A stretch of DNA of 64,000 nucleotides from Candidatus Adlerbacteria bacterium (GTDB lineage Bacteria > Patescibacteriota > Minisyncoccia > Phycocordibacterales > SBAW01): NCBI GenBank assembly GCA_903878285.1, contig CAIRHB010000002.1, positions 808-64,807 on the forward strand. Direction: 5' to 3'. A model generated the notes under the pieces. The model was given only the letters and a program-made list of their open reading frames with translations. It had not been told where the DNA came from and made no database searches. The position numbers and the translations under genes are program-made. This document shows positions 3,572 through 54,307 of this stretch, in pieces; position 1 is the first letter of the stretch; each line of letters opens with the position of its first letter.

Positions 3572-5137
3572 GTGTGTACAACTTGTAGTATGATAGAGAA
3601 CACCATGCTGCGCGGAGTTGATGGACAGTTTGATTGGAAGGGATGCTCTGCCGCACTGACGTATGTCGGCGTGGTCGCGCTGCTCGTGGTTGGTGCCAAG
3701 TTTGGCGTCGCGTATGCAACTGATACACTCTACCCCTCTGCCGACGCATCACTCGCCGCTGATGCTGCAGGCGGTGACGGATCATCTAGCGCAGGCACAC
3801 ATGCAGATGCTGCAAATAGCGCAAACACTATTGGAGGCAACGCGGGAACCACGACGCCAAACCCTGACACACTCTCGACCACGACGCCCGAGCGTGTGAT
3901 CAACGCGCTCACCATTGCGCAGGCGGTGCCCGCGACGGGCAAGTTTATCGCCGCCGACTTGGTCAACATGGAGCTGTATCTCTACCAAGACGGCACGACA
4001 ACCGCCGCGTATCCAATCCTCAGCAAAGGTCGCCCCGGCACTTCGTGGGAGACGCCGAGCGGCATGTATGCCGTGCAGAGCAAAGAGGCAACACACTTCT
4101 CGACCATCGGGCACGTCTACATGCCCTACAGTATGCAGTTTTATGGCAACTATTTTATCCACGGCTGGACCTACTACCCCGACGGCACGCCGGTCGCCGC
4201 GACCTTCTCGGGCGGATGCATCAAGCTCGCGACGACGGATGCCGAAAAGGTTTACGCGTTCGCCGACGTTGGCACCAAAGTCTTTGTCTATGACTCCAAG
4301 CAAGCGACGCCGCCACCCGCGCTGTCGCTCGCGAGCAACCCCGTGCCAGCAATCGACGCTGCGTCCTACCTCGTCGCCGACATCGACACCGGCGATGTGT
4401 ATACCTCGCAGTTCCCCGATATGCCTCTACCAATCGCCTCGGTGACCAAACTGATGACCGCGCTTGTCGCAAACGAAATCATCAGCCTCGATAAAAAAGT
4501 GACGATTGAAGATGGCATGCTCAAAACGCCGCGTGTCGCCTCGAGCACCGCGCCCGAGACCTTCCTCGTCGATGATCTCTTCTACCCACTCCTGATGCAG
4601 TCCAACAATGCGATCGCTGATGCGCTCGCCTCCTACTATGGCACACGCGGGTTCGTCGGCTGGATGAACACCACCGCCCGCGCACTCGACATGACCTCGA
4701 CCACCTTTGCCGATGCGAGCGGCGTCTCGGCGAGCAATGTCTCGACGTCCGAAGACCTCTTCCGCCTCGCGACGTATCTGGAAAATAAAAAATCGTTTGT
4801 ATTAAAAATCACCCACACCAAAAGTAAGACGATTACGGCGAGCGACGGCACGAGCTACACTGTCTATAACGTCAACGCGCCTGCGACCGATGCGGCGTTC
4901 GACGGCGGCAAGGTCGGGCACACCACCGCCGCGGAGGACACGATGCTCTCTGTCCTGTCGATCACCGTTGGTGGCACCGAGCGACACATCGCGATTATCG
5001 TCCTTGGCTCAACGAACCAGAAAGTTGATACCGACCATCTCGCCACCTGGATCACCGCAGCTGCCACCGCAGGCGCTACCTCCCAAACCGCCTGCGCCTC
5101 CTGCGCCCTCCCGCAGTATAGAAAGATCCAGCTGTAG
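3572..5137 (+). CDS. Bifunctional cell-wall enzyme: L,D-transpeptidase (YkuD) domain fused to D-alanyl-D-alanine carboxypeptidase (S11/PBP5-like) domain
   Basis: An N-terminal TM helix is followed by the Ldt catalytic motif HGW...SGGCIKL. The second half carries SVTKLM (SxxK), SNN (SxN) and KVGHT (KTG-like) serine-peptidase motifs. Confidence 0.75.
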   Translation: MCTTCSMIENTMLRGVDGQFDWKGCSAALTYVGVVALLVVGAKFGVAYATDTLYPSADASLAADAAGGDGSSSAGTHADAANSANTIGGNAGTTTPNPDTLSTTTPERVINALTIAQAVPATGKFIAADLVNMELYLYQDGTTTAAYPILSKGRPGTSWETPSGMYAVQSKEATHFSTIGHVYMPYSMQFYGNYFIHGWTYYPDGTPVAATFSGGCIKLATTDAEKVYAFADVGTKVFVYDSKQATPPPALSLASNPVPAIDAASYLVADIDTGDVYTSQFPDMPLPIASVTKLMTALVANEIISLDKKVTIEDGMLKTPRVASSTAPETFLVDDLFYPLLMQSNNAIADALASYYGTRGFVGWMNTTARALDMTSTTFADASGVSASNVSTSEDLFRLATYLENKKSFVLKITHTKSKTITASDGTSYTVYNVNAPATDAAFDGGKVGHTTAAEDTMLSVLSITVGGTERHIAIIVLGSTNQKVDTDHLATWITAAATAGATSQTACASCALPQYRKIQL

Positions 5138-9011: not shown

Positions 9012-9479
9012 CTAGAGATTGTTCCCTGAAGCGACACCGTACTGGGCTGTTATTAGCTTATGAAACTCGGAGAGAGTGCTGCATTTTGTGCTACTTACAT
9101 AGCACACACCCACACTGTCCCCAGCGTTATACATAGCATAGATGTCTGAAGTGTTTACATCCCAGACAGTTTCTTCATAGTTGTAACCCTCGTAGTTTGC
9201 TTTGTTTGGTACTTGTTGATACACATCTATGTAACATTTCTCTTTTTCAGGATTATAATAGTTTGCATAAAAGGAAATGGCAGATGGTTTTTCTATACTT
9301 TGAGGAAAGAACTTAGCCGCAGCGTCGGCGCATTTTTGTTGCAGGGCAAAATAGTTTACTTGTTCTTGTGTAACAGATGTTGCTACAACTAACTTAGAGA
9401 TTCTATATTGCTGATACAAAACAATACCAACAAGCAGGAAGGTAATTATCCCCAAAAACAGAACAGATTTATTTTTCAT
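9012..9479 (-). CDS. Membrane-anchored hypothetical protein (N-terminal TM helix, Cys-containing extracytoplasmic domain)
   Basis: The start was reset to the MKNKSVLFLGIITFLLVGIVLY signal-anchor. It is immediately upstream of the HEPN-like gene and co-oriented with it. Confidence 0.45.
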   Translation of the reverse strand: MKNKSVLFLGIITFLLVGIVLYQQYRISKLVVATSVTQEQVNYFALQQKCADAAAKFFPQSIEKPSAISFYANYYNPEKEKCYIDVYQQVPNKANYEGYNYEETVWDVNTSDIYAMYNAGDSVGVCYVSSTKCSTLSEFHKLITAQYGVASGNNL

Positions 9480-9858
9480 ACGCACTCTACTAGGATTTAG
9501 TGCGACGGAGTAAGCCTCTGGGCGACCAAAGAACTCCTGGCCATCGCGACCCGACCTTTCGGCCGAGCCCATACCCGTTTCCAGATATGACCTAGTAGAG
9601 TGACTCTGACCAGGAGTCCTTTAATCTCTACTAGGATTTGCAACCATACCTTGGGGATTTTAAGACCCAAGGGTTAGGCCGGCTTTTATTAAGTTGTACA
9701 CAACCATGATAGCGCTTTTAGGGCTATCGTCCAAGTACTTTAACTTACTTCTGGAGAATTGCGAAGAGGTAACCAACAGGTCTTTTTTGATCGCTTAAGT
9801 TACCAACATCTTGGGTGCTCGGGACGCTCTGGACTCCTGAGGCAGTCTGCGTCATTCC

Positions 9859-11193
9859 TTGTGGTGTATGACCAACACAACACAAGTGCCAGCGGGGACA
9901 CTGGCTCGGGCGGCGCAAGTCCCAATACCAGTAAAGTATTGTTTGTATGCTCGCAAGAGCACAGAGTCCGAGGAGCGGCAGGTGCTCTCCATCGACTCGC
10001 AAATCAAGGAGATGCTTCAGCTCGCCGAGCGTGAAGGACTCCAGATTGTCGCTATGAAACGCGAGTCGCACTCGGCGAAGGAGACGGGTCAGCGTCCCAT
10101 ATTCAACGAGATTGTCGAGGAGATAAAGGGCGGCAAATACAACGGCATCCTCACTTGGGCACCCGACCGCATCAGCCGCAATGCAGGCGACCTCGGCAAG
10201 ATAGTAGATCTCATGGACGCGGGTGGATTACAAGAGATACGCACCTACAGCCAAAGCTTCCGCAATAATCCGAACGAGAAGTTTTTACTGATGATACTCG
10301 GGAGCCAAGCAAAGCTCGAGAACGACAATCGCGGTATTAATGTAAAACGTGGTCTGCGCACCAGAGTGGAGATGGGGCTGTGGCCGACGACCCCACCGAC
10401 TGGCTACCTGACACAGAAGAATATGGAGAAAAAATGTCAGGTTATCATCGACCCAGAGCGTAGCCCCATCGTGCGTAAGATGTTCGAGAAAATGGCGTAT
10501 GAACATTGGTCGGGGCGCAAGATACATCACTGGCTCAAGTTCGAGCTGAACTTCAAGACGGTGGGTAACAAAAATCTCGCGCTCAGCAACATCTTCCGAA
10601 CGCTACAGAACCCCTTCTACTACGGAGTATTCGAGTACCCGAAAGCATCTGGAAACTGGTATACCGGCAAGCATGAACCACTGATAACCAAGGAGCTGTT
10701 CGAGCTTGTACAGACACAACTCAAGCGGGACAACATCACCCGACAAAGCCACGAGTTCGCTTTCACCAAACTCATTGTCTGCGGCAAGTGTGGATCATGC
10801 GTGAGTGCCGAGGAAAAGTACAAACCGCGCAAGGATGGGACCACGATACGATACGTCTACTACGGATGTGGCAGATCAAAAGACCATCACTGCAAAGGTA
10901 ACAAATACTTGCGCGAGGAAGATCTGGTCGAGCAACTGCTTGGCGTGCTTGATCAAATCGACCTCAACGTGCTCGGTGTACAGATAAAGTTCAAAGATGA
11001 GCTCAAGCGGCACAACAAATTCCAGCGCACGGTACTGGGACTATCAAACCCATCTGCCGAGCACGAAGATATCGACCTCAAGACCTATGCCAAATACATT
11101 CTCAAGGAGGGTACCATGGAGGAAAAGCGTGAACTGATGGGGTGCTTCAAGACAAAGCTCAAGATCACAGAGGGTGTTGTAACTATCGGCTAG
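9859..11193 (+). CDS. Large serine recombinase (phage-integrase type), copy A
   Basis: N-terminal resolvase catalytic domain (YARKST..SIDSQ), recombinase domain, and a Cys-rich zinc ribbon (CGKCGS...C..C). Length 444 aa. Confidence 0.9.
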   Translation: MWCMTNTTQVPAGTLARAAQVPIPVKYCLYARKSTESEERQVLSIDSQIKEMLQLAEREGLQIVAMKRESHSAKETGQRPIFNEIVEEIKGGKYNGILTWAPDRISRNAGDLGKIVDLMDAGGLQEIRTYSQSFRNNPNEKFLLMILGSQAKLENDNRGINVKRGLRTRVEMGLWPTTPPTGYLTQKNMEKKCQVIIDPERSPIVRKMFEKMAYEHWSGRKIHHWLKFELNFKTVGNKNLALSNIFRTLQNPFYYGVFEYPKASGNWYTGKHEPLITKELFELVQTQLKRDNITRQSHEFAFTKLIVCGKCGSCVSAEEKYKPRKDGTTIRYVYYGCGRSKDHHCKGNKYLREEDLVEQLLGVLDQIDLNVLGVQIKFKDELKRHNKFQRTVLGLSNPSAEHEDIDLKTYAKYILKEGTMEEKRELMGCFKTKLKITEGVVTIG

Positions 11194-35982: not shown

Positions 35983-36018
35983 ACTCTACAGTATAGCGCA
36001 TCTTTTCCGCCCCAACTT

Positions 36019-36966
36019 CTAATTTGATTGCCCCACTACCTTATCATAGAGATATACATTATGACGATCTTTTGCTGTTGGTGGGCAGCGAGGATATGCT
36101 TCACACGTACTGTTGTAAATCAACACACGGAACGAAGCAGGATCTGCTCCAGAAATAATGTTTGATCCTGACCACACGTGGTTTTTGTCTTTTTCATAAA
36201 CATCAGAAAGAAGGGTGTACGATTCTGGGTCAGCGTCAGGAATCACGCTACCTTGAAAATATACAGCTTGAGTATCTGTTGCATACAGAGTCGACCAAGC
36301 TGTGGATACATTCTTGTTCTGCGGCATAACTGCAAACGAAGGCGCATCTGCGCCAACAATCTCGTTACACGAAAACCACACATGACGCGCATCCTTCGCA
36401 TACTGATTTTGATTTGGAAGTAGCATAAACGTGGTTGGATCAGCGCCTTGCAGTACATCACCGCCCTGTAGCATAATGCCTCCACAATAGACACGATCTG
36501 TATCAATCGAATACAAACCGATACTGTTAGTGTCGTTTATCAGTTTTTTGTAGCTTGACGCATCAACCCCAGTACCAAACAAGACAGGTGAAGATATGCC
36601 GCGAGTAAAGACGTACATCTCTGCTCGCACAAAGGGTACGGCGACCAAGAACAACGCAAGCGCCACAATACTGGAAGACCAGTAGCGTTTACTCTGATAC
36701 AAGAAGTACGTCGCGAGAAAATTCAGTACAAAAACAATGAACAACTCAAGCAGCGGTGCACTGTATGTCCAGAGTATGTACCCAAAGGCGGGAAAAATAA
36801 AAAGAAAAGATAATAGAGGAGAGGCATTAGGAGCCCCAGCGCCATCTGCCACACCAAATAAAGCTCCCAGGAACACGAGCAGCGCTGTTGGTATAAGCGC
36901 TATGGTCGTAACAACCACACACGCCATTGTGAGATAATACAAACTACGTGCTAGTGTTTCTTTCAT
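36019..36966 (-). CDS. Membrane protein with DKNxY-type repeats
   Basis: N-terminal TM helices are followed by repeated DARHVWF / DKNHVW / DRHNVYLYDKV motifs. Confidence 0.45.
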   Translation of the reverse strand: MKETLARSLYYLTMACVVVTTIALIPTALLVFLGALFGVADGAGAPNASPLLSFLFIFPAFGYILWTYSAPLLELFIVFVLNFLATYFLYQSKRYWSSSIVALALFLVAVPFVRAEMYVFTRGISSPVLFGTGVDASSYKKLINDTNSIGLYSIDTDRVYCGGIMLQGGDVLQGADPTTFMLLPNQNQYAKDARHVWFSCNEIVGADAPSFAVMPQNKNVSTAWSTLYATDTQAVYFQGSVIPDADPESYTLLSDVYEKDKNHVWSGSNIISGADPASFRVLIYNSTCEAYPRCPPTAKDRHNVYLYDKVVGQSN

Positions 36967-37059
36967 ATACCGACTAGAGATAGGTAACCGAAATTATTGT
37001 ACCAGAACCCCACCGCTCGCCCTTCGATGTTGTTCATATTAGTAGTATACTATAACACT

Positions 37060-37596
37060 ATGAGCACACAGGAGCGAGCAAGTCGTGCGAATACTGGCTT
37101 TACACTCATCGAGTTGTTGGTCGTCATTTCGATTATCGGACTCCTCGCGAGTATCATCCTCGCGTCGCTTACCTCGGCAAGAGGTAAGGCGAGAGACGCC
37201 GCTATAAAATCAGAGACTGGACAGATGCAAACACTGGAGGAGGAGAATGCGAATGATTATGGCAATTATACAAACCTACAGCCTGCCATAGCAGCGGGTG
37301 GTTGGTGGATGATGACCAACACACCAACCTGTGCAGCATACATCACTGCAGGAAACTATGCAACACAAGCACAGCAAGTGTGTAACAATATTATAAGTCT
37401 GGAAGGCAACCCAAGTAGTGGTAATTACTTCTTTCTAGGGAATCTAGGGCTCAGCAGTTGCACTGCGTATAATCCTCAAAAGTATTCGATGATTATCTGG
37501 CTCCCAAACCAAGCCACTTGGTGGTGCGCAGGGAGTGATGGCGTAGGAACCGACTCAGGGTCTGGTAATACACCAGGGTGTTACTGTAATCCTTAA
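37060..37596 (+). CDS. Type IV pilin / pseudopilin (prepilin-type N-terminal cleavage-methylation domain)
   Basis: The class III signal G|FTLIELLVVISIIGLL is present. The start was reset to the Met 7 aa upstream of the cleavage site. A TATAAT-like box lies upstream. Confidence 0.8.
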   Translation: MSTQERASRANTGFTLIELLVVISIIGLLASIILASLTSARGKARDAAIKSETGQMQTLEEENANDYGNYTNLQPAIAAGGWWMMTNTPTCAAYITAGNYATQAQQVCNNIISLEGNPSSGNYFFLGNLGLSSCTAYNPQKYSMIIWLPNQATWWCAGSDGVGTDSGSGNTPGCYCNP

Positions 37597-37613
37597 AAAT
37601 CACAGCTCAACGA

Positions 37614-38444
37614 TTACTCTTTCGGTAGTGAGTACGTGAGTTTGCCATCCATGTCGATACCAAAGGTGATGCCGAGCGGGTCGGCGGGGGTTTCGGTGAG
37701 GATGCCCGCAGTGACAAGACTGTCGAGCGTTTTTGGATACACACCGTAGTGCTTTTTATAGAGCGCGATTGCTTGGTCGAGCACATCCATGATGTCGATA
37801 TGCTCAACGGCATTCTTTGCCTGTTGTCGCACCACATCGTCTTTGGAGTTGTCGTAAATCGCTGTCCAAATTGCTTTTGTCTTCTCGCGCAGGTCGGTGC
37901 GCGCGCCATAGTTGAGCGCCGAGATACGCACACCGTCGGGCACGCCGGGCGTAGTGGCGGTTGTGGTCATGTACAGCTGCGCATCTTGCTCATCCTTCAG
38001 CGACAAGTGGTAGGTCATCGCGAGATAAAACGGGATATGCCAATCAGCAAGACGCTGCGCCACACCCGCCTTCCCTATCGCGAGAGCATTTTGAAGCTCG
38101 TCTTGGTCCATCATTGGGATCATCAAAACACCGAACGCGTAGGGGTAGCTCCACTTGGGGTCGAGCGCGTTAATCGTCTGGATATTATTTGCCAGCCCAA
38201 GGAACGAGCCTTGCGTGCCGATGTTTTGTATCACCCCGAGCCACAAGAGCGACGCAGTCGCGGTGTGGAGCCCCAAGTCTGCTATCTGCAGCATCGTTGG
38301 CGAGTAGTAGGTAAAGATCTGCGCCGACTTTTTTGGCTGATGCGCATCACTCTGCAGCTGTGCGCCGATAATCCCCGCAAGCAGCGCTACTGCGAGTATC
38401 CACCAAACCAGTATTGTATACGGCCGTCGCATAGCATGCTGCAT
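37614..38444 (-). CDS. Hypothetical membrane-anchored protein
   Basis: The start was reset to MQHAMRRPYTILVWWILAV, giving a 4-nt overlap with the upstream permease stop. Confidence 0.45.
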   Translation of the reverse strand: MQHAMRRPYTILVWWILAVALLAGIIGAQLQSDAHQPKKSAQIFTYYSPTMLQIADLGLHTATASLLWLGVIQNIGTQGSFLGLANNIQTINALDPKWSYPYAFGVLMIPMMDQDELQNALAIGKAGVAQRLADWHIPFYLAMTYHLSLKDEQDAQLYMTTTATTPGVPDGVRISALNYGARTDLREKTKAIWTAIYDNSKDDVVRQQAKNAVEHIDIMDVLDQAIALYKKHYGVYPKTLDSLVTAGILTETPADPLGITFGIDMDGKLTYSLPKE

Positions 38445-38446
38445 GA

Positions 38447-39220
38447 TTAGAGTTCGCGCTTCGCCAACAGTCTCGAAGAAAGCCACAACAAAAGCCCCGT
38501 GTACAAGAGCGCATACACCATCACCCACACGACCCCAAACAGTGTTGGTGCGCTGCTGTAGATTATCGTGTCGCGGATAGCAAACTTATCGAGGTTGGGT
38601 AGGACGTAGTACAGCGCTTTTGATACATACACGAGGAAGCCGCCACTGCGTGCCGCATACGAGACGAGCAACCCGAGCGAGTGCCCCACATAGAGAAAAA
38701 TGATGGCATAGATAATCGATGCGAGCGGGCGCGAAAAGGTGGAGAAGAATATCGTCAACGCGGTCAAGAGCGCCAGCTCGAGCAACTCATACCACACCGC
38801 AAGTATCGCAAGCGCATCAAACCCGCCACCCTCATACCACACCACCCCGAGATACACCGCCAGCATACCCGCCAAAGACACCCCGATGCTCGCAAGAAGC
38901 CCCGCAAATTTGCCGACGACCAGCTCGCCACGCGCAATAGGCTTGGAGAGGATAAAGTATAGCGTCCGGCGCTCGAGCTCTTTGTATATGAGCGACACCC
39001 CGAGGAAGATGGTGCTGAGCAAGCCAAAGAGGTAGATGCAGGCAAGCCCGATGCTGCGGATGATGTGTATGTTCTCGCCCAGCGAGATGGAACCCAGAAA
39101 GATAGTAAACGTGATAAACACAAACGCGAACGCCACGATACCGTAGAATATCTTGTCGCGCACGCCTTCTTTAAACGTATTCTTCGCGATCGCGTAGCTG
39201 TGTTTTAGAAACGTGGTCAT
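38447..39220 (-). CDS. ABC-2 family transporter permease
   Basis: Six hydrophobic helices. It is immediately downstream of an ABC ATPase. Confidence 0.6.
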   Translation of the reverse strand: MTTFLKHSYAIAKNTFKEGVRDKIFYGIVAFAFVFITFTIFLGSISLGENIHIIRSIGLACIYLFGLLSTIFLGVSLIYKELERRTLYFILSKPIARGELVVGKFAGLLASIGVSLAGMLAVYLGVVWYEGGGFDALAILAVWYELLELALLTALTIFFSTFSRPLASIIYAIIFLYVGHSLGLLVSYAARSGGFLVYVSKALYYVLPNLDKFAIRDTIIYSSAPTLFGVVWVMVYALLYTGLLLWLSSRLLAKREL

Positions 39221-39232
39221 AGTGTGTATGTA

Positions 39233-39976
39233 TTACTGAGTATCGTCTTGCGCATCTTCTGCGTCAGTGAGCGACTCGATCGCCGCGACGAACTGCTCCT
39301 CCAGCGACTTGCCACGCGTAAACTCGTTGATAGGACCGCTAAAGAGTAGCGACCCTTGGTGCAGAATGCCAATCTCATCGCACAACTCTTCGGTATCAAA
39401 CAAAATGTGCGAGTTAAAGAAAATAGTCTTGCCGGCGCGCTTCAGCTCGCCGATGATGACCTTGAGTGCGCGACGACCGATAGGGTCGAGACCGTCCAGC
39501 GGCTCGTCGAGGAATATGTATTCGGGATCATTAACGAGCGCCTGCGCAAAACCCAAGCGCTGCTTCATCCCCTTGGAGTAGGTCGTTATCTTTTGGTTGC
39601 GTGCCTCAAAGATGCCCACTTTTTTGAGCAACTCGTCGATTTCATCCTGACTCGCACGATGTTTGGTAAATAACTCGCTGCAAAAGGTGAGAAACTCAAG
39701 CCCCGTGAGATGCTCGTAGAAGTACGGCGCCTCGGGCATAAAGCCAATCTGCTCGCGGGCGCTCGCCTCGCTCGGCGCCTTGCCATCGATCGTAACCGCA
39801 CCCGCATCCGGCTTGTTGAGCCCGACCAGCATCTTGATGGTTGTTGTCTTGCCAGCGCCGTTGGGGCCCAAAAAACCAAACACCGTACCCTTTTTGATAC
39901 GCAGGTTGAGCCCGTCGACCACCACACGCCCGTTGATTTCTTTTGTGACATCAGCAACCGAAATCATATATACCAA
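39233..39976 (-). CDS. ABC transporter ATP-binding protein
   Basis: Walker A (GPNGAGKTT), an ABC signature-like YSKGMKQRL, and Walker B (IFLDEP). Confidence 0.9.
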   Translation of the reverse strand: MVYMISVADVTKEINGRVVVDGLNLRIKKGTVFGFLGPNGAGKTTTIKMLVGLNKPDAGAVTIDGKAPSEASAREQIGFMPEAPYFYEHLTGLEFLTFCSELFTKHRASQDEIDELLKKVGIFEARNQKITTYSKGMKQRLGFAQALVNDPEYIFLDEPLDGLDPIGRRALKVIIGELKRAGKTIFFNSHILFDTEELCDEIGILHQGSLLFSGPINEFTRGKSLEEQFVAAIESLTDAEDAQDDTQ

Positions 39977-40222
39977 TTAGTATAGCCGCGTCGCGTCGCT
40001 TGCCAAGTCTGTACAATCCACACAACAGTGTAGTGGTGTTATAGAGCGCCGTCGGGATAGGTAATCCCCCTCTGCGCGCACCCTGATAAGGCAGTAGCCC
40101 CTTTCGCGCCACACGAGGGATGGACGTTGCGGCCGCGGCGTCGAGGTAGACATGATATCTCCTTGTGTTTGAACTCCAAAACACATATTGACGACAGAGT
40201 ACCGCGTACCGCGCTCCTGTAC

Positions 40223-42925
40223 CTACCGCACTTCCACTGTTTGCACACGTGCGACCCAGTGCCATAAATCGGTATTGGGCGGAGCAATCGAAATATTTAG
40301 ACACTGATTCGAGGTGTCAGCAGAAATGTTTGGTAACAACACCGCCCCAGTACCGACACCCTGCGCAACCCCATTATTACCGGAAACCCACGTCGCATTG
40401 CCCACACCTCGGTACAATACTCCACGTATACCAACGACGGAAGCGATGTTGCCAGCAGAAGCGGTATCTGTACCCACAAGCGAGGCTTCGACTGTATATG
40501 TTCTTGAGGTTGGTATATTGATGCAGTTCGTCGCGCTCGGCGCATTCCCGTCCGCAGTAAGCGTAGTAGGCGATGCACTTGTAGTTATTGCATGGAGTAT
40601 GAGCGTGCAGTATTGTGCGTCCCCCTGTCCAACACCCAAGTTCCCCGACGCGGAACAGTTACTACCAACACGACCACGATCCGTCGCATAACTTCCCGTC
40701 ACCATGGAGTAGTTCCCTGTCGCACTGTTCGCGATTCCCATTGCGACTGCTTGAGACGCATTCGCGGTGTTCGAAAGACCCATGGCGATTGTGCCAATCC
40801 CGTTACTTACGTTTCCACTCCCAATAGCGGTTGAGCTTGCTGCGTTGCTTGTATTATCGTTGCCAATAGCAATAGCCCCAGCACCGCTCGCGACATGCGA
40901 GTTTGATGTCCGCATTGGTTGTATCTCGACTGAGTTCGCCCCACGCGCACTGCCACCAAAACCCACGGACGTGTAAATTCCACTCATACTATTTTCTACC
41001 CATATGTTCGACGTCCCATTATCTGCCGCAGGCGAAGTTGTGTTTATGATGTTATTTTGAGACACGATATTGTTTGTCGCACCCGCATCAAGCGTGATAC
41101 CATTACCATCACCGCTGCCGCCCATAAATCCTGAGAAAACATTATTCGAAATGACACCATGACCCGCACCGTTACCAAAATAAAGTGCCGTACCACCTTG
41201 CGTGGGACTACCGAAGAACATATTGTTCGTAACCTGCGGTTCTAGGACACCTACGATATTCAGTTCATTCGCTGGCGACACTTCGCCATCAAAGAAATTG
41301 TTGTTAATCTGCACGCCAGTCAAAGTCCCTGCGCCCGACGTATCCAGATATACACCACGCATCACATACGAGTTTGACAAAACGAACTGCTCACCTGCAC
41401 CCGCGCTCGCATCCCAGAAGATTGACTGGGACGCCGCAGCAACATTCAATCCTCGCGCGATAACACCTTGTACGTAGGGACCGATGTAGAGAAAACGATA
41501 CCCGTTCCATGACACAATGTTGTCAAGCATGAGTCCAATGCTGTAAATGCCCGCTCCCACATCACCCTTGAAGGAGATCGCGGTTGAATTTGAGGAGAGA
41601 AAGAATGTTGAGTTGCTCACATACGCCTGCGTAGGTAGTTTTGTTATATCGATACCGAAGTTCCATGCACCCACAAAAGAACAATTCTCAACATAGAATG
41701 GATTCCCCTGCTGCCCACCAACCGCATTGGTTGTCACTTTGATAGCGCTTGAACCAGGCGTCGTGTTGGTATACGAGAGTGTCAGGTTCCGAAACCCGAC
41801 GTACTGTCCGTTTCTGGTAGTATAGTGTGCAATCTGTATATCGAACGCGTCCGCTTGCCCCGTCTGAGTAATGGTTGTGATGCCTGGACCTTGACCCTCA
41901 ATCATGAAGCCTTGTTGTGCGGACATGGCGACTGTTTGCGCGGCCGACAATTTGAAATTACCTGCTGGCAAAACAATCTTTGCACCAAAAGGTCTCGACA
42001 AAGCAGCAGTAATTGCGGCAGTAAATGCTGTATCACTGTTAGTCACTCCCGTAGGATCCGCCCCAGCGTATGACATGATCGATATTGTGTCTCCTGTCCA
42101 CGCTGCCAACGTCCTCGCCGTCGTCGCACCTGTTGCCAAGACAGTCGATGAACTGACATCACCACCAACACTGCTGCAGTCCGTCCCTGTGCCAGCCACA
42201 TTCCCACTCGCGTCAGTATGCAGACACTGAGCCGTGCCAACCGCATTAGAGAGACTGAGTGCCGGAATCGTTGTAGTTCCTGTAAGCGTCCCGCCCGAGA
42301 GGGGAAGATAGTTGCTTGCGGTAATGTTTGTTGGAATATCAGATGCGGTTAATCCCGAAACACCGTTCACCTGTGCACCGGAGATAGTGACGTTGTTGAG
42401 ACTGTTGATACGTTGCGAAGCAGCAATCGCGCCCCACACACCGCCACCTGCCATTGTGGACGTAGCACCGTAGAGTGCTTGGTGCAATTGCTCTTGAGTC
42501 ACAAGGTCAGTTTGCGTGGCATCGGGGGTACTGGTGGCGGTGGTCGTCGCCGTTGTTGTGGTAGTGCTTGTAGCAACAGAGGTTGTGCTGGTCAGCTTTT
42601 GCAGCAACGCGAGTGTCTTGGGACCTACTGAGCCCGTTGGTGTGAGTTTGTGTGTCTTCTGAAATGTGGTTACTGCTTTGGTAGTAGCCGGACCGTAGGT
42701 GCCATTAGGAGTTGCGGCAAGGAAACCTTGTGCTGCAAGAAACTGCTGCAGTGCAAGGACGTCAGCGCCATTGTCATTTTTGGTGAGGGTATGGGTGATA
42801 GACACTGTAGGTATTGCAGTAGTTACAACAGATGGAGAGGTTGTTGCGGTGGTGGTGGCAAAAACGAGCGCAGGGACAGACAGCAAAAAGATGGCAGTAG
42901 CTGCCACAGACGCGTTGTATTGCAT
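40223..42925 (-). CDS. Large secreted surface protein: signal peptide, peptidoglycan-binding domain, Thr/Ser-rich linkers, right-handed parallel beta-helix repeats
   Basis: PG_binding_1-like LALQQFLAAQGFL...GPKTLALL segment. The beta-helix region is very Gly/Asn/Ser/Thr-rich. The start was set at MQYNASVAATAIFLL, the signal peptide. The alternative upstream ATG at 42979 would read through the poly-C tract. Confidence 0.65.
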   Translation of the reverse strand: MQYNASVAATAIFLLSVPALVFATTTATTSPSVVTTAIPTVSITHTLTKNDNGADVLALQQFLAAQGFLAATPNGTYGPATTKAVTTFQKTHKLTPTGSVGPKTLALLQKLTSTTSVATSTTTTTATTTATSTPDATQTDLVTQEQLHQALYGATSTMAGGGVWGAIAASQRINSLNNVTISGAQVNGVSGLTASDIPTNITASNYLPLSGGTLTGTTTIPALSLSNAVGTAQCLHTDASGNVAGTGTDCSSVGGDVSSSTVLATGATTARTLAAWTGDTISIMSYAGADPTGVTNSDTAFTAAITAALSRPFGAKIVLPAGNFKLSAAQTVAMSAQQGFMIEGQGPGITTITQTGQADAFDIQIAHYTTRNGQYVGFRNLTLSYTNTTPGSSAIKVTTNAVGGQQGNPFYVENCSFVGAWNFGIDITKLPTQAYVSNSTFFLSSNSTAISFKGDVGAGIYSIGLMLDNIVSWNGYRFLYIGPYVQGVIARGLNVAAASQSIFWDASAGAGEQFVLSNSYVMRGVYLDTSGAGTLTGVQINNNFFDGEVSPANELNIVGVLEPQVTNNMFFGSPTQGGTALYFGNGAGHGVISNNVFSGFMGGSGDGNGITLDAGATNNIVSQNNIINTTSPAADNGTSNIWVENSMSGIYTSVGFGGSARGANSVEIQPMRTSNSHVASGAGAIAIGNDNTSNAASSTAIGSGNVSNGIGTIAMGLSNTANASQAVAMGIANSATGNYSMVTGSYATDRGRVGSNCSASGNLGVGQGDAQYCTLILHAITTSASPTTLTADGNAPSATNCINIPTSRTYTVEASLVGTDTASAGNIASVVGIRGVLYRGVGNATWVSGNNGVAQGVGTGAVLLPNISADTSNQCLNISIAPPNTDLWHWVARVQTVEVR

Positions 42926-42940
42926 GCTACCAGTGTGCCA

Positions 42941-42951
42941 CCCCCCCCCCC
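42941..42951. repeat. Homopolymeric C11 tract (G11 on the coding strand of the surface-protein gene)
   Basis: Eleven consecutive C read directly from the sequence, 16-26 nt upstream of the chosen start codon. Confidence 0.9.
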
Positions 42952-43004
42952 GCGATTGTGCAAGGTGGGTTGTACACAATACTAGGAAGGTAGATGCGCC
43001 ACTG

Positions 43005-44246
43005 TTATCGCACCGCTTTGGACACTGCTTCGACTACTCCATTGTCGAAGGGTCCGGGGATGATTTTGTTGGCAGTGGGGCGCTTGACTAACGCGGCGAG
43101 ATTCTTTGCAGCAGTGAGTTTCATCTTGTCGGTAATCTTGGATACGCGGCGATCGAGTGCACCGCGAAAGATGCCCGGAAAGACGAGCGAATTGTTAATT
43201 TGGTTGGGATAGTCGGAGCGACCAGTAGCGACGACTGCAGCACCACCTTTTTTTGCTTCGTCGGGTAGGATCTCGGGCACTGGGTTAGCAAGCGCAAAGA
43301 CAATTGGCTGCGCCGCCATCAGCTGCACCTCCTTCGCAGTCATGAGCCCTGGGCCGGAGACACCGACAACTACGTCTGCGCCCGTGAGCGCCTCCGCCAA
43401 ACCGCCCACGATACCGCGCGGATTCGTCTGCGACGCCAGCTCTTTTTTGTATCCCGACAGCTCTGGCCGTGCAGTACTCAAAATGCCTTTGCTGTCGAGC
43501 ACGATGATGTCTCTGACACCCGCAAGCAGCAGCAACTGAGTAATCGCTGTTCCCGCGGCACCAGCGCCCGAGACGACCACTTTCAACTTTTTAAAATTCT
43601 TTTTGACTATGACTGCTGCGTTGCTAAGCGCTGCAAGCACGACAATCGCCGTGCCATGTTGGTCGTCGTGCATCACGGGGATGTCGAGCGCCGCTTTGAC
43701 GCGCTCCTCTATCTCGAAGCAGTCGGGCGCGGCAAAATCCTCTAGGTTAATGCCACCAAACGCGGGTGCTATGGCGAGAATTGTCTCGACCACCACGTCG
43801 ATGCGCCGCTCGGCCGGCGTGTTGGCAGGGATGTCGAGCACGATCGGGAACGCGTCGACGTTCGCGAATGTTTTAAAGAGTGCGACTTTGCCCTCCATCA
43901 CTGGCAGCGCGCCGTAGGGGCCGATGTTGCCGAGCCCTAAGACGGCAGTGCCATCGGAGATAACCGCGACCATACGGCTTTTAATCGTATATTGTTTGGC
44001 AAGCGCAGATTGTTTGGAAACGGCATGCAGCGCACCCTTCTTGCCCGCAATGAGCGTCGACACCGCACCAACGCCCGGCGTGTACACGAGCGATAAATCT
44101 GCCCGCGTCTTAATCGGCGCCGCTGGCACCACACGAATCTTCCCCTGCAACTTCTTGTGTAACACAATCGCTTGCTGCGCAGTAGTTTCTTTCGTACCAC
44201 CCTTTGCCCCACTCTTCTTTGTACCCTTCGTGTGTTTGATAGCCAT
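43005..44246 (-). CDS. NAD(P)-dependent malic enzyme (short form)
   Basis: Motifs DLSLVYTPGV and VISDGTAVLGLGNIGP, plus the Rossmann motif VVSGAGAAG. Confidence 0.85.
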   Translation of the reverse strand: MAIKHTKGTKKSGAKGGTKETTAQQAIVLHKKLQGKIRVVPAAPIKTRADLSLVYTPGVGAVSTLIAGKKGALHAVSKQSALAKQYTIKSRMVAVISDGTAVLGLGNIGPYGALPVMEGKVALFKTFANVDAFPIVLDIPANTPAERRIDVVVETILAIAPAFGGINLEDFAAPDCFEIEERVKAALDIPVMHDDQHGTAIVVLAALSNAAVIVKKNFKKLKVVVSGAGAAGTAITQLLLLAGVRDIIVLDSKGILSTARPELSGYKKELASQTNPRGIVGGLAEALTGADVVVGVSGPGLMTAKEVQLMAAQPIVFALANPVPEILPDEAKKGGAAVVATGRSDYPNQINNSLVFPGIFRGALDRRVSKITDKMKLTAAKNLAALVKRPTANKIIPGPFDNGVVEAVSKAVR

Positions 44247-44285
44247 AGAGAGAGTATAGCAGAGTAAAACACCCTCCGACGAGAT

Positions 44286-44308
44286 CCGCCGAGGTTAAAC
44301 CTCGGCGG
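44286..44308. repeat. REP-like palindromic hairpin, copy 1 (CCGCCGAGGTT-A-AACCTCGGCGG)
   Basis: Palindrome with an 11-bp stem. It is identical to copy 3 over about 28 nt. Confidence 0.8.
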
Positions 44309-44329
44309 AAATAATAGCGAGACTCTGTA

Positions 44330-44815
44330 CTACAGATGACGCGGAGAAAGAACCGCAACAGCATTACCAGAAAATACCTGTTGCATTCTTCGTTCCAAGA
44401 CACGAACACCAACCTGTGTACCGATACTGGCAAAGCCTGCAGAGTTCTGGACAAGAAAGCGCACCTCTCCATCTGCCGTTGTTTCGAAGCCATAGACAAG
44501 CACAAAGTGACCACCCTTTCTCGGCGGCGAATTTTCCGTATGCAGTCGTATCTCTGGGTGCACCGAAGCCATAACATACCAACCCATGAGCAACCTGACA
44601 CGGATACACAACGTACTCATTCTACGCTCGGGTCGCGCAATAAGACCATGTCGCATCCACAGGGTCTCGGCGAGCTCTTGATGATAGGCGCCACGCCATC
44701 CTTTTTCTACACTTTCTATGCGGTACGCAGAACAATCGACCGCGCCGTAGAAAAGTCTTTCAAGAGGAGGCGCGACCATCCCTTCGGCCTTCAATATCAT
44801 TTGGAGGCAGCACAT
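44330..44815 (-). CDS. Hypothetical protein, possibly papain/C39-like peptidase fold
   Basis: There is a Cys near the N-terminus and a GGHFVLVYG block reminiscent of the C39-like His region. This is weak. The overlapping plus-strand ORF looks non-coding. Confidence 0.3.
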   Translation of the reverse strand: MCCLQMILKAEGMVAPPLERLFYGAVDCSAYRIESVEKGWRGAYHQELAETLWMRHGLIARPERRMSTLCIRVRLLMGWYVMASVHPEIRLHTENSPPRKGGHFVLVYGFETTADGEVRFLVQNSAGFASIGTQVGVRVLERRMQQVFSGNAVAVLSPRHL

Positions 44816-45064
44816 GGCACACCAATGAGCATTTGGCCGAGGAGATGCTTCGCATTAGAACTCTCAACCCAGCGCTCGACAGCTGACCGGTCGTCAATCT
44901 GGCAGGTATAGAAATCTGCCGGGTTGCGACCACGAAACAAGTCTGTCGATGTAGGAAAGTCTGCAAGACCCTCTAAACACATATGCTTTCTCCTTGTTTA
45001 CCGTTCCGAGGGCTAGAACTTGTATTTTTCAAGAAAAGTCACGGGGAAAAAACTTCCACACTAT

Positions 45065-45094
45065 CCGCCGAGGTTAAACCTCTAAACCTCGGCG
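45065..45094. repeat. REP-like hairpin, copy 2 (variant with enlarged loop)
   Basis: CCGCCGAGG-TTAAACCTCTAAA-CCTCGGCG. It lies 16 nt upstream of the RAYT start. Confidence 0.7.
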
Positions 45095-45109
45095 AAACAT
45101 GCTAGTATA

Positions 45110-45805
45110 TTGGGTATGGCAAACCGACCACCTCTTGCTATTGGGGAATGGTATCACTGCTACAATCGCGGCGTAGACAAGCGGCGTGTTTTTCATAATA
45201 AAGAATACTACGAACGATTTCTTTTTCTCCTTTATATCGCAAACAGAACCGAGCGCGTGCACACCTCGCACCTTAAAAGCACTCGGCTTGCTGAGGTGCT
45301 TGCCGATACCACACTGGACAACTACGAACCACTGGTTGAGATTGGTGCGTACACACTCATGCCAAACCATTTGCATATTGCAGTGCGAGAAATACGTGAT
45401 GGTGGGATAGCAACATTTATGCAAAAAGTTTTTACTGGGTATACGATGTATTTCAATAAGAGACATGAACGCACTGGCTCGCTATTTGCAAGCACGTACA
45501 AATCAAAACACGTTGACGACGATCGCTACATGAAACAACTCATCCACTATATACATCTCAATCCCGTAGAAATTATTGAACCTCGATGGAAAGAAGGAAA
45601 GGGTAATATTAAGAAAATAGAAAAATGGTTGCTCACCTATCCATATTCTAGCTTGCCCGATTTTAGTACCGACCGACCAGAGAAAAAAATACTCGGAACA
45701 ACGGTATTTGAGCTATTTGATAAAATCCCATCAGTACAAGAAATGCTTGAAGAAGCGCAAGAGTACTACCAATCCGCCGAGGTTAAACCTCGGCGGAAAG
45801 AATAA
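45110..45805 (+). CDS. REP-associated tyrosine transposase (RAYT; IS200/IS605-like HUH Y1 transposase)
   Basis: HUH motif NHLHIAV, a downstream Tyr in the YTMYFNKRH region, and REP hairpins on both sides. The 3' end of the ORF reads through REP copy 3 (SAEVKPRR). Confidence 0.75.
   Translation: MGMANRPPLAIGEWYHCYNRGVDKRRVFHNKEYYERFLFLLYIANRTERVHTSHLKSTRLAEVLADTTLDNYEPLVEIGAYTLMPNHLHIAVREIRDGGIATFMQKVFTGYTMYFNKRHERTGSLFASTYKSKHVDDDRYMKQLIHYIHLNPVEIIEPRWKEGKGNIKKIEKWLLTYPYSSLPDFSTDRPEKKILGTTVFELFDKIPSVQEMLEEAQEYYQSAEVKPRRKE
45774..45796. repeat. REP-like palindromic hairpin, copy 3
   Basis: Same 23-nt palindrome as copy 1. It overlaps the last codons of the RAYT gene and lies 12 nt upstream of the recG start. 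Confidence 0.8.
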
Positions 45806-49295: not shown

Positions 49296-50030
49296 CTATC
49301 TTTTTGTACGCCCGGAGGGATTCGAACCCCCAACCAATCGCGTATAAGGCGACTGCTCTACCATTGAGCTACGGGCGTGTATTTCGCGCAGATGCTTAAG
49401 CGCCATTGTAATGTACTCCCAAACGCCGATATTTTCAAAGAATACGTTGCATGTCCCATGTCCGTATCCGTTCTTATACGTAATAGCACTCAATGTCGAC
49501 TCCTTTATATACGGTTTTCTAAAGGATGCCTGTGGAAGCCCGGTTTCTTTTGACCAGAAATCCGTCTCCATTTTTTGATCCATATCTTTGTATAGATGCA
49601 ATCGTGCTCGTAATGATTCCCTTGGGATACCGACCGCACCGAGCCAGTGCAAAAACGCTCGTATCACTGCAGGGTCGGTATTCGCTATCGCGACAGTTCC
49701 ACGCGAGGATTTTGTCCCCTCGCCCCAGTACAAATACAAACCCGCGATAAACAACTCTCGTTGTGTTAGATGCCCAATGTCCGCGACCGCACAAGCATAC
49801 GCAGCAGCATATCGTGCATCTCTTTTCTTTCGCATTGTCTCGCGGAAGTGTTCTATGCGTTTTGGACTCACATCGCGCAGTAGTCGTATCTGCTCTGCAG
49901 AGAGTGGCATATCAGCAAGCCACACACTTAGCGTGCCTTTTGCCACACCGATACACTCCCGTATCTCGGAGTAACTCTTGCCTTGGGCACGCAACGTCCG
50001 CGCTTTTTCTCTATCAGCCACTCGAGTCAT
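49296..50030 (-). CDS. HTH plus LAGLIDADG-like homing-endonuclease-like protein; the 3' end of the ORF runs through the tRNA-Ile gene
   Basis: N-terminal resolvase-type HTH (GKSYSEIRECIGVAKGTLSVWL), then a LAGLIDADG-like core (FIAGLYLYWGEGTK...IANTDPAVIRAFLHWLGAVGI). The last ~25 codons overlap the tRNA on the same strand. Confidence 0.35.
   Translation of the reverse strand: MTRVADREKARTLRAQGKSYSEIRECIGVAKGTLSVWLADMPLSAEQIRLLRDVSPKRIEHFRETMRKKRDARYAAAYACAVADIGHLTQRELFIAGLYLYWGEGTKSSRGTVAIANTDPAVIRAFLHWLGAVGIPRESLRARLHLYKDMDQKMETDFWSKETGLPQASFRKPYIKESTLSAITYKNGYGHGTCNVFFENIGVWEYITMALKHLREIHARSSMVEQSPYTRLVGGSNPSGRTKR
49307..49378 (-). tRNA. tRNA-Ile (anticodon UAU)
   Basis: I folded it by hand. 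Acceptor stem is ACGCCCG/CGGGCGT, D-arm is GCTC-AATGGTA-GAGC, anticodon arm is GTCGC-CTTATAC-GCGAT, and T-arm is GGGGG-TTCGAAT-CCCTC. The discriminator is A and CCA is not encoded. Confidence 0.8.
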
Positions 50031-53908: not shown

Positions 53909-54294
53909 GGGGATGCCAGGCATAGACAATAGAAACAGTTGTGTGACGCGCGCAGTAGAAGCCCAGACCTTCTTAAAAAATCTGGAAACCCTAACTGCAA
54001 AATCGTCAGTTACATCGCCGTACTTTTCGGCGAACGAGTTCGCCTTCGCGTAATCCGCCAACGCCAACTCGCATCCGCTCTGCCACCGCCCGAGGGTAGA
54101 GGTCGGGTGTTATACATCGGGCTTGTGTGGCAGGAGACCGCTTCCCTCTTGTCGCAGACACCGACGAAGCCGCATGGCGTACGTATTTTGAATCTTCTCG
54201 AACGTACGCAGCAAGAAAATTAGAAGATTCTACACTACGTAGAAGCGCACTCGACTCTCTGTTGCACGCGGGTTCGACTCCCGCCATCTCCACC
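53909..54294 (+). ncRNA. ssrA: tmRNA (ssrA)
   Basis: The 5' GGGGATG pairs with the 3' CATCTCC, including a G3-U70 wobble. A T-arm GCGGG-TTCGACT-CCCGC precedes ACC. There is an internal ORF ending ...ANEFAFA-stop. It sits directly downstream of smpB. Confidence 0.7.
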
Positions 54295-54307
54295 TGTAAA
54301 AACATTC

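Follow-up and report, generated by a model that had tools for sequence, protein, structure and literature searches.

The window analysed in this work is a stretch of 64 kb of DNA. A homopolymer of eleven guanines on the coding (-) strand (G11), which corresponds to C11 on the + strand, was found at 42941-42951 by direct sequence inspection. The tract lies upstream of a gene (40223..42925, - strand) that encodes a 900-aa protein and that was characterised by its ORF, domain searches, a structural model and homologue alignments. The G-run spans positions -16 to -26 relative to the start codon ATG at 42925-42923, which agrees with the initial annotation that had placed a C11 run 16-26 nt upstream of the start codon. 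The upstream neighbour is the malic enzyme gene (43005..44246, - strand), which has its own putative leaderless promoter (TGc-TATACT-N6-ATG). The tract lies in the 79-nt gap that begins after the TAA stop codon (43005-43007) of the malic enzyme gene. The order of elements on the coding strand is …CCTTGCACAATCGC-GGGGGGGGGGG-TGGCACACTGGTAGC-ATG…. The + strand ORFs that overlap the tract (42650-42985 and 42699-43091) are antisense only and appear in no assembly's gene calls. No Rfam family was found at the tract locus and no compositional anomaly marks it.

Residues 1-212 of the 900-aa protein, which share 62% identity with the Adlerbacteria paralogue P0004, consist of a hydrophobic signal-like N-terminus and a PG_binding_1 domain (residues 52-108, E=9e-17), followed by a linker rich in Thr and a stalk motif that is conserved. 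A match to the pectate-lyase-like beta-helix was also obtained (E=7e-6), and its score of 26.4 bits is just under the 27-bit cutoff. The initial annotation of a secreted peptidoglycan-binding beta-helix protein of about 900 residues is borne out by the PG_binding_1 domain, the signal-like N-terminus and this weak beta-helix match. The AF2 model was built from a five-sequence alignment and is poor overall (pLDDT 41), and its sole confident part is a beta-solenoid formed by residues ~280-540 (pLDDT 50-89). Foldseek returned weak matches to beta-helix alginate epimerases and lyases, polygalacturonase, the Sf6 tailspike and the adhesin PfbA, and these fold matches give weak support for a beta-helix because the AF2 model is poor.

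Residues 251-900 (window 40223-42175) are 62% identical to the protein P0002, which is encoded on a JGI contig of 59% GC (L011 3451-6012). The gene of P0002 lies directly downstream of podophage GP4 homologues (gp77 fibre-tail adaptor, E=9e-21, and gp80 fibre protein). The paralogues of the 900-aa protein share a common anchor and have unrelated C-terminal modules. These sequence relationships suggest that a CPR bacterium and a phage have exchanged a receptor-binding module. No relatives were found among the viral contigs that were searched with the C-terminal module, and the sequence searches of PHROGs and PDB gave matches that were limited to the PG-binding domain. The 900-aa protein is probably exposed on the surface, and it would fit the class of products that contingency genes encode. 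At another locus (L047 3275-3530) the homologue P0005 is apparently frameshifted, with a signal-peptide ORF (ATG 3275, stop 3470) that is separated from the PG-binding domain (from ~3478). P0005 is either a pseudogene or the result of an indel error in what is apparently a long-read assembly.

The best named matches of FtsH from the window belong to Candidatus Paceibacterota, Parcubacteria, Adlerbacteria and Patescibacteria. A search of reference genomes with a four-sequence alignment found the two homologues nearest to the 900-aa protein in 'Candidatus Adlerbacteria bacterium' MAGs. On these matches the host is an uncultivated lake CPR bacterium (Paceibacteria, Adlerbacteria-like). The proposal of a putative episymbiont is reasonable at the level of the lineage, given the CPR affiliation indicated by FtsH and by the homologue matches.

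In a sister species whose FtsH is 93% identical, the corresponding interval consists of RecG, malic enzyme, an 80-aa ORF and an ABC transporter. The 900-aa gene, the Y1 transposase-like gene, the pilin gene and the DKNYY genes are absent from this syntenic interval. The 900-aa gene is therefore accessory and is probably a horizontally acquired insertion that includes the tract-bearing promoter. The nearest relative lacks the gene and so offers no orthologous locus for the comparison that the initial annotation had proposed. The flexible region covers ~36000-45800 of the window when it is compared with the sister-species contig (ERZ1426851). On that contig RecG, malic enzyme, the ABC transporter and a T4SS-like ATPase are retained. 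A PIN-domain gene is present there instead of the 900-aa gene, the pilin-like (N_methyl) gene, DKNYY and the Y1 transposase together with its 61-aa and 156-aa ORFs.

A 17-nt palindrome, CCGAGGTTTAACCTCGG, occurs three times in the window (44289-44305, 45068-45084 and 45777-45793; 0.02 expected by chance). Two of its copies flank the gene of an IS200-like Y1 transposase of 229-231 aa (45110-45805, + strand; PF01797, E=6e-7). The palindromes and the Y1 transposase are arranged in a way that resembles the REP/RAYT type, here in a CPR genome, and this element is absent from the sister species. Three RNA features were also observed elsewhere in the window. A tRNA-Ile with anticodon TAT (UAU) is located at 49306-49378 (- strand). 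This tRNA is uncommon in bacteria, most of which decode AUA with a lysidine-modified CAU tRNA. A LOOT RNA (RF03000, 78.8 bits) is located at 9548-9680 (- strand) and overlaps the annotated 5' end of ORF 9012-9572 by 25 nt. A tmRNA is located at 53909-54295 and its tag peptide is AKSSVTSPYFSANEFAFA.

The tract has no counterpart in the surrounding sequence. All other C or G runs in the 64-kb window are 6 nt long or shorter, and the expected number there of C/G runs of at least 11 nt ranges from 0.001 (first-order Markov) to 0.02 (independent bases). G/C runs of at least 6 nt are about five-fold depleted in the window (2 observed, 10.8 expected), unlike A/T runs, which are enriched. No C/G run of at least 8 nt was found among 30 related loci (~450 kb), and no other tandem repeat of the contingency type was found within the window. 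With a single tract in 64 kb and none in the relatives, nothing points to a larger repertoire of phase-variable genes. Slippage is frequent in G/C homopolymers of about 8 nt or more, as in the tracts of Campylobacter and Neisseria. The tract exceeds this length both in the window (G11) and in other assemblies (G10).

The locus was recovered on the contigs of other assemblies through exact-protein look-ups. The window and eight other contigs exhibit no substitutions over ~59 kb aligned, and the sole indels among the eight contigs are a 1-nt difference in the tract, which is either G10 or G11. The G11 allele is present in the window, ERZ27313262, ERR4193669 and ERZ18637425. The G10 allele is present in ERZ27313165, ERZ27229620, ERR4195115 and ERZ18629531, and G10 was also deduced for ERZ1426630 from an intergenic gap of 78 nt rather than 79 nt. 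These two lengths are the only ones seen across all assemblies. The locus is split in ERR4193367, where one contig terminates in …AATCGC-G10 and the adjoining contig opens with G10-TGGCAC…. These contig ends are the two de Bruijn branch nodes that would be expected if G10 coexisted with G11 or a longer allele. The flanks of the tract, with a variable gap between them, gave no matches when JGI metagenome contigs were scanned. The assemblies therefore exhibit tract-length polymorphism in an isogenic background, which is the pattern known from contingency loci, as judged from assembly-level evidence. The tract is probably prone to slippage because it is the sole difference between otherwise identical public assemblies, and it is likely to be hypermutable.

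Two other apparent sources of variation were examined and rejected. A second variable site upstream of the malic enzyme gene proved to be a difference in gene calling (61+156 aa against 161 aa), as the DNA is identical. Additional differences in L043 and L010 are not polymorphisms of the locus, as they belong to divergent or chimeric contig ends. L010 contains a chimeric join to unrelated sequence within the beta-helix gene (3881-4148), and L043 has a divergent contig end within the DKNYY gene (10427-10498). These divergent ends are assembly artefacts or strain variants.

The length of the tract could instead be fixed in vivo, with G10 and G11 produced by PCR slippage, sequencing phasing or the assembler and with no phase variation taking place. 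StratFreshDB, which comprises lake and pond metagenomes and is the indicated source of the data, was generated from ThruPLEX PCR libraries with NovaSeq 2x150 reads (PMC8121793). Its reads were assembled with MEGAHIT, both as single samples and as co-assemblies (PMC8121793). The public reads of PRJEB38681 include a lake series of 22 time points. The libraries were PCR-amplified, so some of the G10/G11 heterogeneity could arise in vitro, and both the ThruPLEX amplification and the NovaSeq chemistry are compatible with an artefact. The differences seen are also limited to +/-1 nt, and slippage products are known to arise in PCR and sequencing reactions at the homopolymeric tracts of Bordetella (PMC1891110). 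At least three samples are independent, and their exact number is uncertain because the same reads have probably been assembled more than once among the ENA records. ERZ27313165 and ERZ1426630, for example, have a common contig end. However, assemblers report the majority k-mer path, so that a consensus changed in about half of the assemblies would not be expected from slippage products that form a minority. Three separate runs that were processed by one pipeline (Logan) gave three outcomes, namely G11, G10 and an unresolved branch, which also speaks against an artefact. The same is true of the lack of any other difference in ~59 kb, where the window provides no control tract of equal length. 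We consider an artefact unlikely on these grounds, and the G10/G11 polymorphism probably arises in vivo.

The position of the tract was interpreted with the promoter and translation grammar of the lineage, which was sampled in the whole window and in three further loci (L013, L014 and L047). A -10-like box, defined as at least 5/6 matches to TATAAT or TATACT, is located 4-12 nt upstream of the start in 25/74 genes, about one third; among 1,031 internal control ATGs the share is 2.3%. The distance from this box to the start has its mode at 6 nt, a value found at 8/74 starts and at 0.1% of the controls. A Shine-Dalgarno-like motif (GGAG, GAGG or AGGA) is present in 6/74 genes. These statistics are the signature of a lineage that would mostly use leaderless mRNAs. 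The start-proximal promoters also exhibit an extended -10 TGn more often than expected (9/24, with 1.5 expected), and the same applies to a TTG-type -35 at 15-19 nt (8/24, with 1.8 expected). The spacers of the TTG-type -35 elements are 16, 17, 18 (five cases) and 19 nt, with a mode of 18 nt.

The promoter of the 900-aa gene can be read with the same grammar. It consists of a candidate -35 element TTGCAC (42958..42963, - strand; 42963-42958 in the direction of transcription), a spacer of AATCGC, the G-run and TGG, the hexamer CACACT (42937-42932), GGTAGC and the ATG. The TGG that follows the G-run supplies the TG of a candidate extended -10 element, TGg-CACACT (42932..42940, - strand), which is located 6 nt before the ATG and implies a leaderless mRNA. 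A near-identical promoter, TGG-TACACT-N6-ATG, is carried by L014. The promoters of the paralogues also follow this layout, with TTGCTG-N18-TATAAT-N6-ATG in L013, TTGCCC-N17-GATACT-N7-ATG in L012/L014 and TTGCCG-N15-TACAAT-N6-ATG in L047. No homopolymer is present in these three paralogue promoters, whose spacers are 15-18 nt. The layout at the locus matches both the lineage grammar and the paralogue promoters, and the tract would therefore form most of the promoter spacer. The largely leaderless character of the lineage would likewise place the tract in the promoter spacer, and the term promoter-spacer element suits it better than 5'-UTR element or coding element.

The distance between the candidate -35 element and the -10 hexamer depends on the allele. 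It is 20 nt in G11, which is outside the observed range, and 19 nt in G10, which is at the edge of that range. A G9 allele would give the modal 18-nt spacer, and no allele with that spacer was found among the assemblies compared. The hexamer CACACT is weak as a -10 element, with 3/6 matches to TATAAT and 4/6 to the local TATACT, and a generic sigma-70 promoter scan of 42500-43400 reported nothing. The promoter model rests on the lineage-specific statistics rather than on a generic scan, and TTGCAC with CACACT is presumably the promoter that is actually used. An inverted repeat, ATTGTG-N14-CACAAT (42955..42980, - strand), lies directly upstream of the tract and overlaps the candidate -35 element. 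It could be the operator of a dimeric regulator, and would then be comparable to the activator site beside the fim C-stretch of Bordetella, or merely the core of an intergenic RNA hairpin.

The tract might mutate in vivo and still be incidental, for instance as a by-product of the insertion, with little effect on expression and no selection. The lineage-specific insertion of the 900-aa gene is in line with this reading, as are the lack of a tract in any relative and its occurrence as the sole tract in the window. Both alleles seen give long spacers, and with an extended -10 element the activity of the promoter could be unaffected by the length of the spacer. The tract, however, lies exactly between the -35-like and the extended -10-like elements, which is a typical position for contingency tracts. 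Moreover, the retention of a run of 10-11 G needs explaining because G/C runs of at least 6 nt are strongly avoided in the window. An incidental tract has in our view a small chance of being correct, similar to that of an artefact.

The initial annotation had considered a second start codon, an ATG at 42979, from which the tract would be translated in frame as RGGGW. The codon at 42977..42979 (- strand) reads TTG and was rejected as a start from the sequence and from the alignment with P0004. Translation from TTG 42979 would turn the tract into a frameshift switch, in which the G11 allele is read in frame (ON) and the G10 allele out of frame (OFF). TTG 42979 is indeed in frame with the ORF through G11 (…AQSRGGGWHTGSMQYN…, SRGGGWHTGSM), and it is so solely in that allele. 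The extension would also add a positively charged Arg to the n-region of the signal peptide, which otherwise has no Lys or Arg. Against these two points, P0004 aligns Met1 to Met1 with ATG 42925 and its start is equivalent to that codon. Every gene call starts at ATG 42925, on the G10 and G11 contigs alike. The leaderless architecture would set the start of transcription at or near ATG 42925, and TTG 42979 would lie outside the transcript because the leaderless -10 box is ~6 nt before the start. ATG 42925 also stays usable in G10 cells. The P0004 alignment and the gene calls speak against the TTG start and hence against the coding frameshift mechanism, to which we assign almost no probability. 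The tract lies upstream of the supported start ATG 42925 and not inside the gene, where an intragenic frameshift switch would have to be.

The G-run could also act in RNA, either in a 3' hairpin of the malic enzyme transcript (as a stabiliser or terminator) or as a 5' leader or G-quadruplex of a longer mRNA. The intergenic RNA of 121 nt folds at -46.4 kcal/mol (z=-2.4), and 1/200 shuffles folded equally well. The G-run in this fold pairs with CUACCUUCCU, a pyrimidine stretch just past the malic enzyme stop codon, and ATTGTG/CACAAT forms the inner stem. No U-tailed or canonical terminator is present between the malic enzyme gene and the 900-aa gene, which fits a role of the hairpin in the malic enzyme transcript, and read-through from the malic enzyme gene into the 900-aa gene is possible. 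The hairpin itself has no U-tail, however, although U-tailed terminators are present elsewhere in the window (upstream of 57957). G-runs pair easily with any pyrimidine stretch, and many of the pairs are G-U. The hairpin is without covariation support because a single sequence exists, and G11 alone is insufficient for a stable three-tetrad quadruplex. A function of the G-run in RNA is improbable in our assessment, and the role of the tract as a promoter-spacer element is preferred.

We propose, with moderate confidence, that the 900-aa gene undergoes graded transcriptional phase variation through slipped-strand mispairing at the G-tract, which would lie in the spacer of a leaderless sigma-70-type promoter that belongs to this gene. 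Mispairing at the G-run during replication would lead to the gain or loss of one G. The gain or loss would alter the distance between the -35 and -10 elements of the leaderless promoter of the 900-aa gene. The change of the spacer would then raise or lower transcription in a heritable and reversible manner. The effect would be a graded volume control rather than a strict on/off switch, and activity is predicted to follow the order G9 >= G10 > G11. The extended -10 promoter may be independent of the -35 spacing. The effect of tract length on expression of the 900-aa gene is deduced from the promoter layout, and we infer that the variation of the tract is selected and adaptive.

The proposal of a slipped-strand phase-variation switch in the initial annotation is therefore retained in part. 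The behaviour of the tract resembles that of a hypermutable sequence, as G10/G11 is the sole difference between the assemblies and the contigs of ERR4193367 break at the tract. Its probable location is the promoter spacer, and 'toggle' is too strong a term, as a graded change of transcription is more likely.

Phase variation that is driven by homopolymers is textbook knowledge for host-adapted pathogens. No relevant report came up when the full-text literature was searched for phase variation together with CPR, Patescibacteria or Saccharibacteria. The mechanism is classical, and the lineage is new for slipped-strand phase variation in the literature searched. We tentatively suggest that the locus may be the first documented contingency locus in CPR, in which a promoter-spacer poly-G provides volume control of a leaderless gene for a wall-anchored protein that was acquired horizontally and stems from a phage tail fibre, and in which an ultra-small episymbiont hedges its bets. 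This wider suggestion is less probable than the promoter mechanism itself. If it is true, the amount of the protein would vary by chance, which would be a form of bet-hedging on attachment to the bacterial host or of evasion from phage or host defence. A phage directed at the same host surface may carry this receptor-binding module as well. A specific candidate gene for CPR host interaction would also be pinpointed, and bet-hedging would extend to episymbionts of free water. On the practical side, the tract interrupts assemblies of this genome or is miscalled in them, and leaderless promoters are to be expected when the lineage is annotated.

The findings in this work can be compared with four known systems. 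In Neisseria meningitidis, promoter-spacer phase variation was reportedly described by Sarkari et al. in 1994 (cited in PMC5084427) for opc (poly-C) and porA (poly-G). The homopolymer of opc and porA lies between the -35 and -10 elements and sets the spacer and hence the strength of the promoter, and the targets are outer-surface proteins. The locus in the window is similar in that its homopolymer lies between a candidate -35 and a candidate -10 element and its target is a probable surface protein. However, Neisseria possesses dozens of such loci whereas one is visible here, and the alleles of Neisseria span optimal and non-optimal spacers whereas spacers of 19 and 20 nt were seen here. The poly-G contingency loci of Campylobacter jejuni are mostly intragenic frameshift switches, and their tracts slip often and give populations of mixed length. 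The tract shares with them the composition of G/C and the length of ~8 nt or more. Unlike most Campylobacter tracts, it is intergenic and located in a candidate promoter.

The promoters of fim2, fim3 and fimX in Bordetella carry C-stretches, and the fimX transcript differs ~4-fold between C7 and C8 (PMC1891110). The locus resembles the fim system of Bordetella pertussis and Bordetella bronchiseptica, as both have a long C/G homopolymer in the promoter, here a candidate one, of a gene for a surface structure and both exhibit tract-length polymorphism, which in Bordetella occurs among otherwise near-clonal isolates (PMC1891110). Single-nucleotide changes at the fim tracts alter the transcript gradedly by measurement (PMC1891110), whereas the graded effect here is predicted. 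The fim tract separates the site of an activator (BvgA) from the -10 element of a leadered gene (PMC1891110). In contrast, the locus described here has a putative operator inverted repeat, a probably leaderless mRNA and an uncultivated CPR host.

The nearest precedent within CPR is a gene of a Gracilibacterium with a hypervariable in-frame 9-mer coding repeat (PMC6851277). The Gracilibacterium repeat varies the sequence of the protein and not its expression (PMC6851277), whereas the repeat found in this work is a homopolymer in a candidate promoter.
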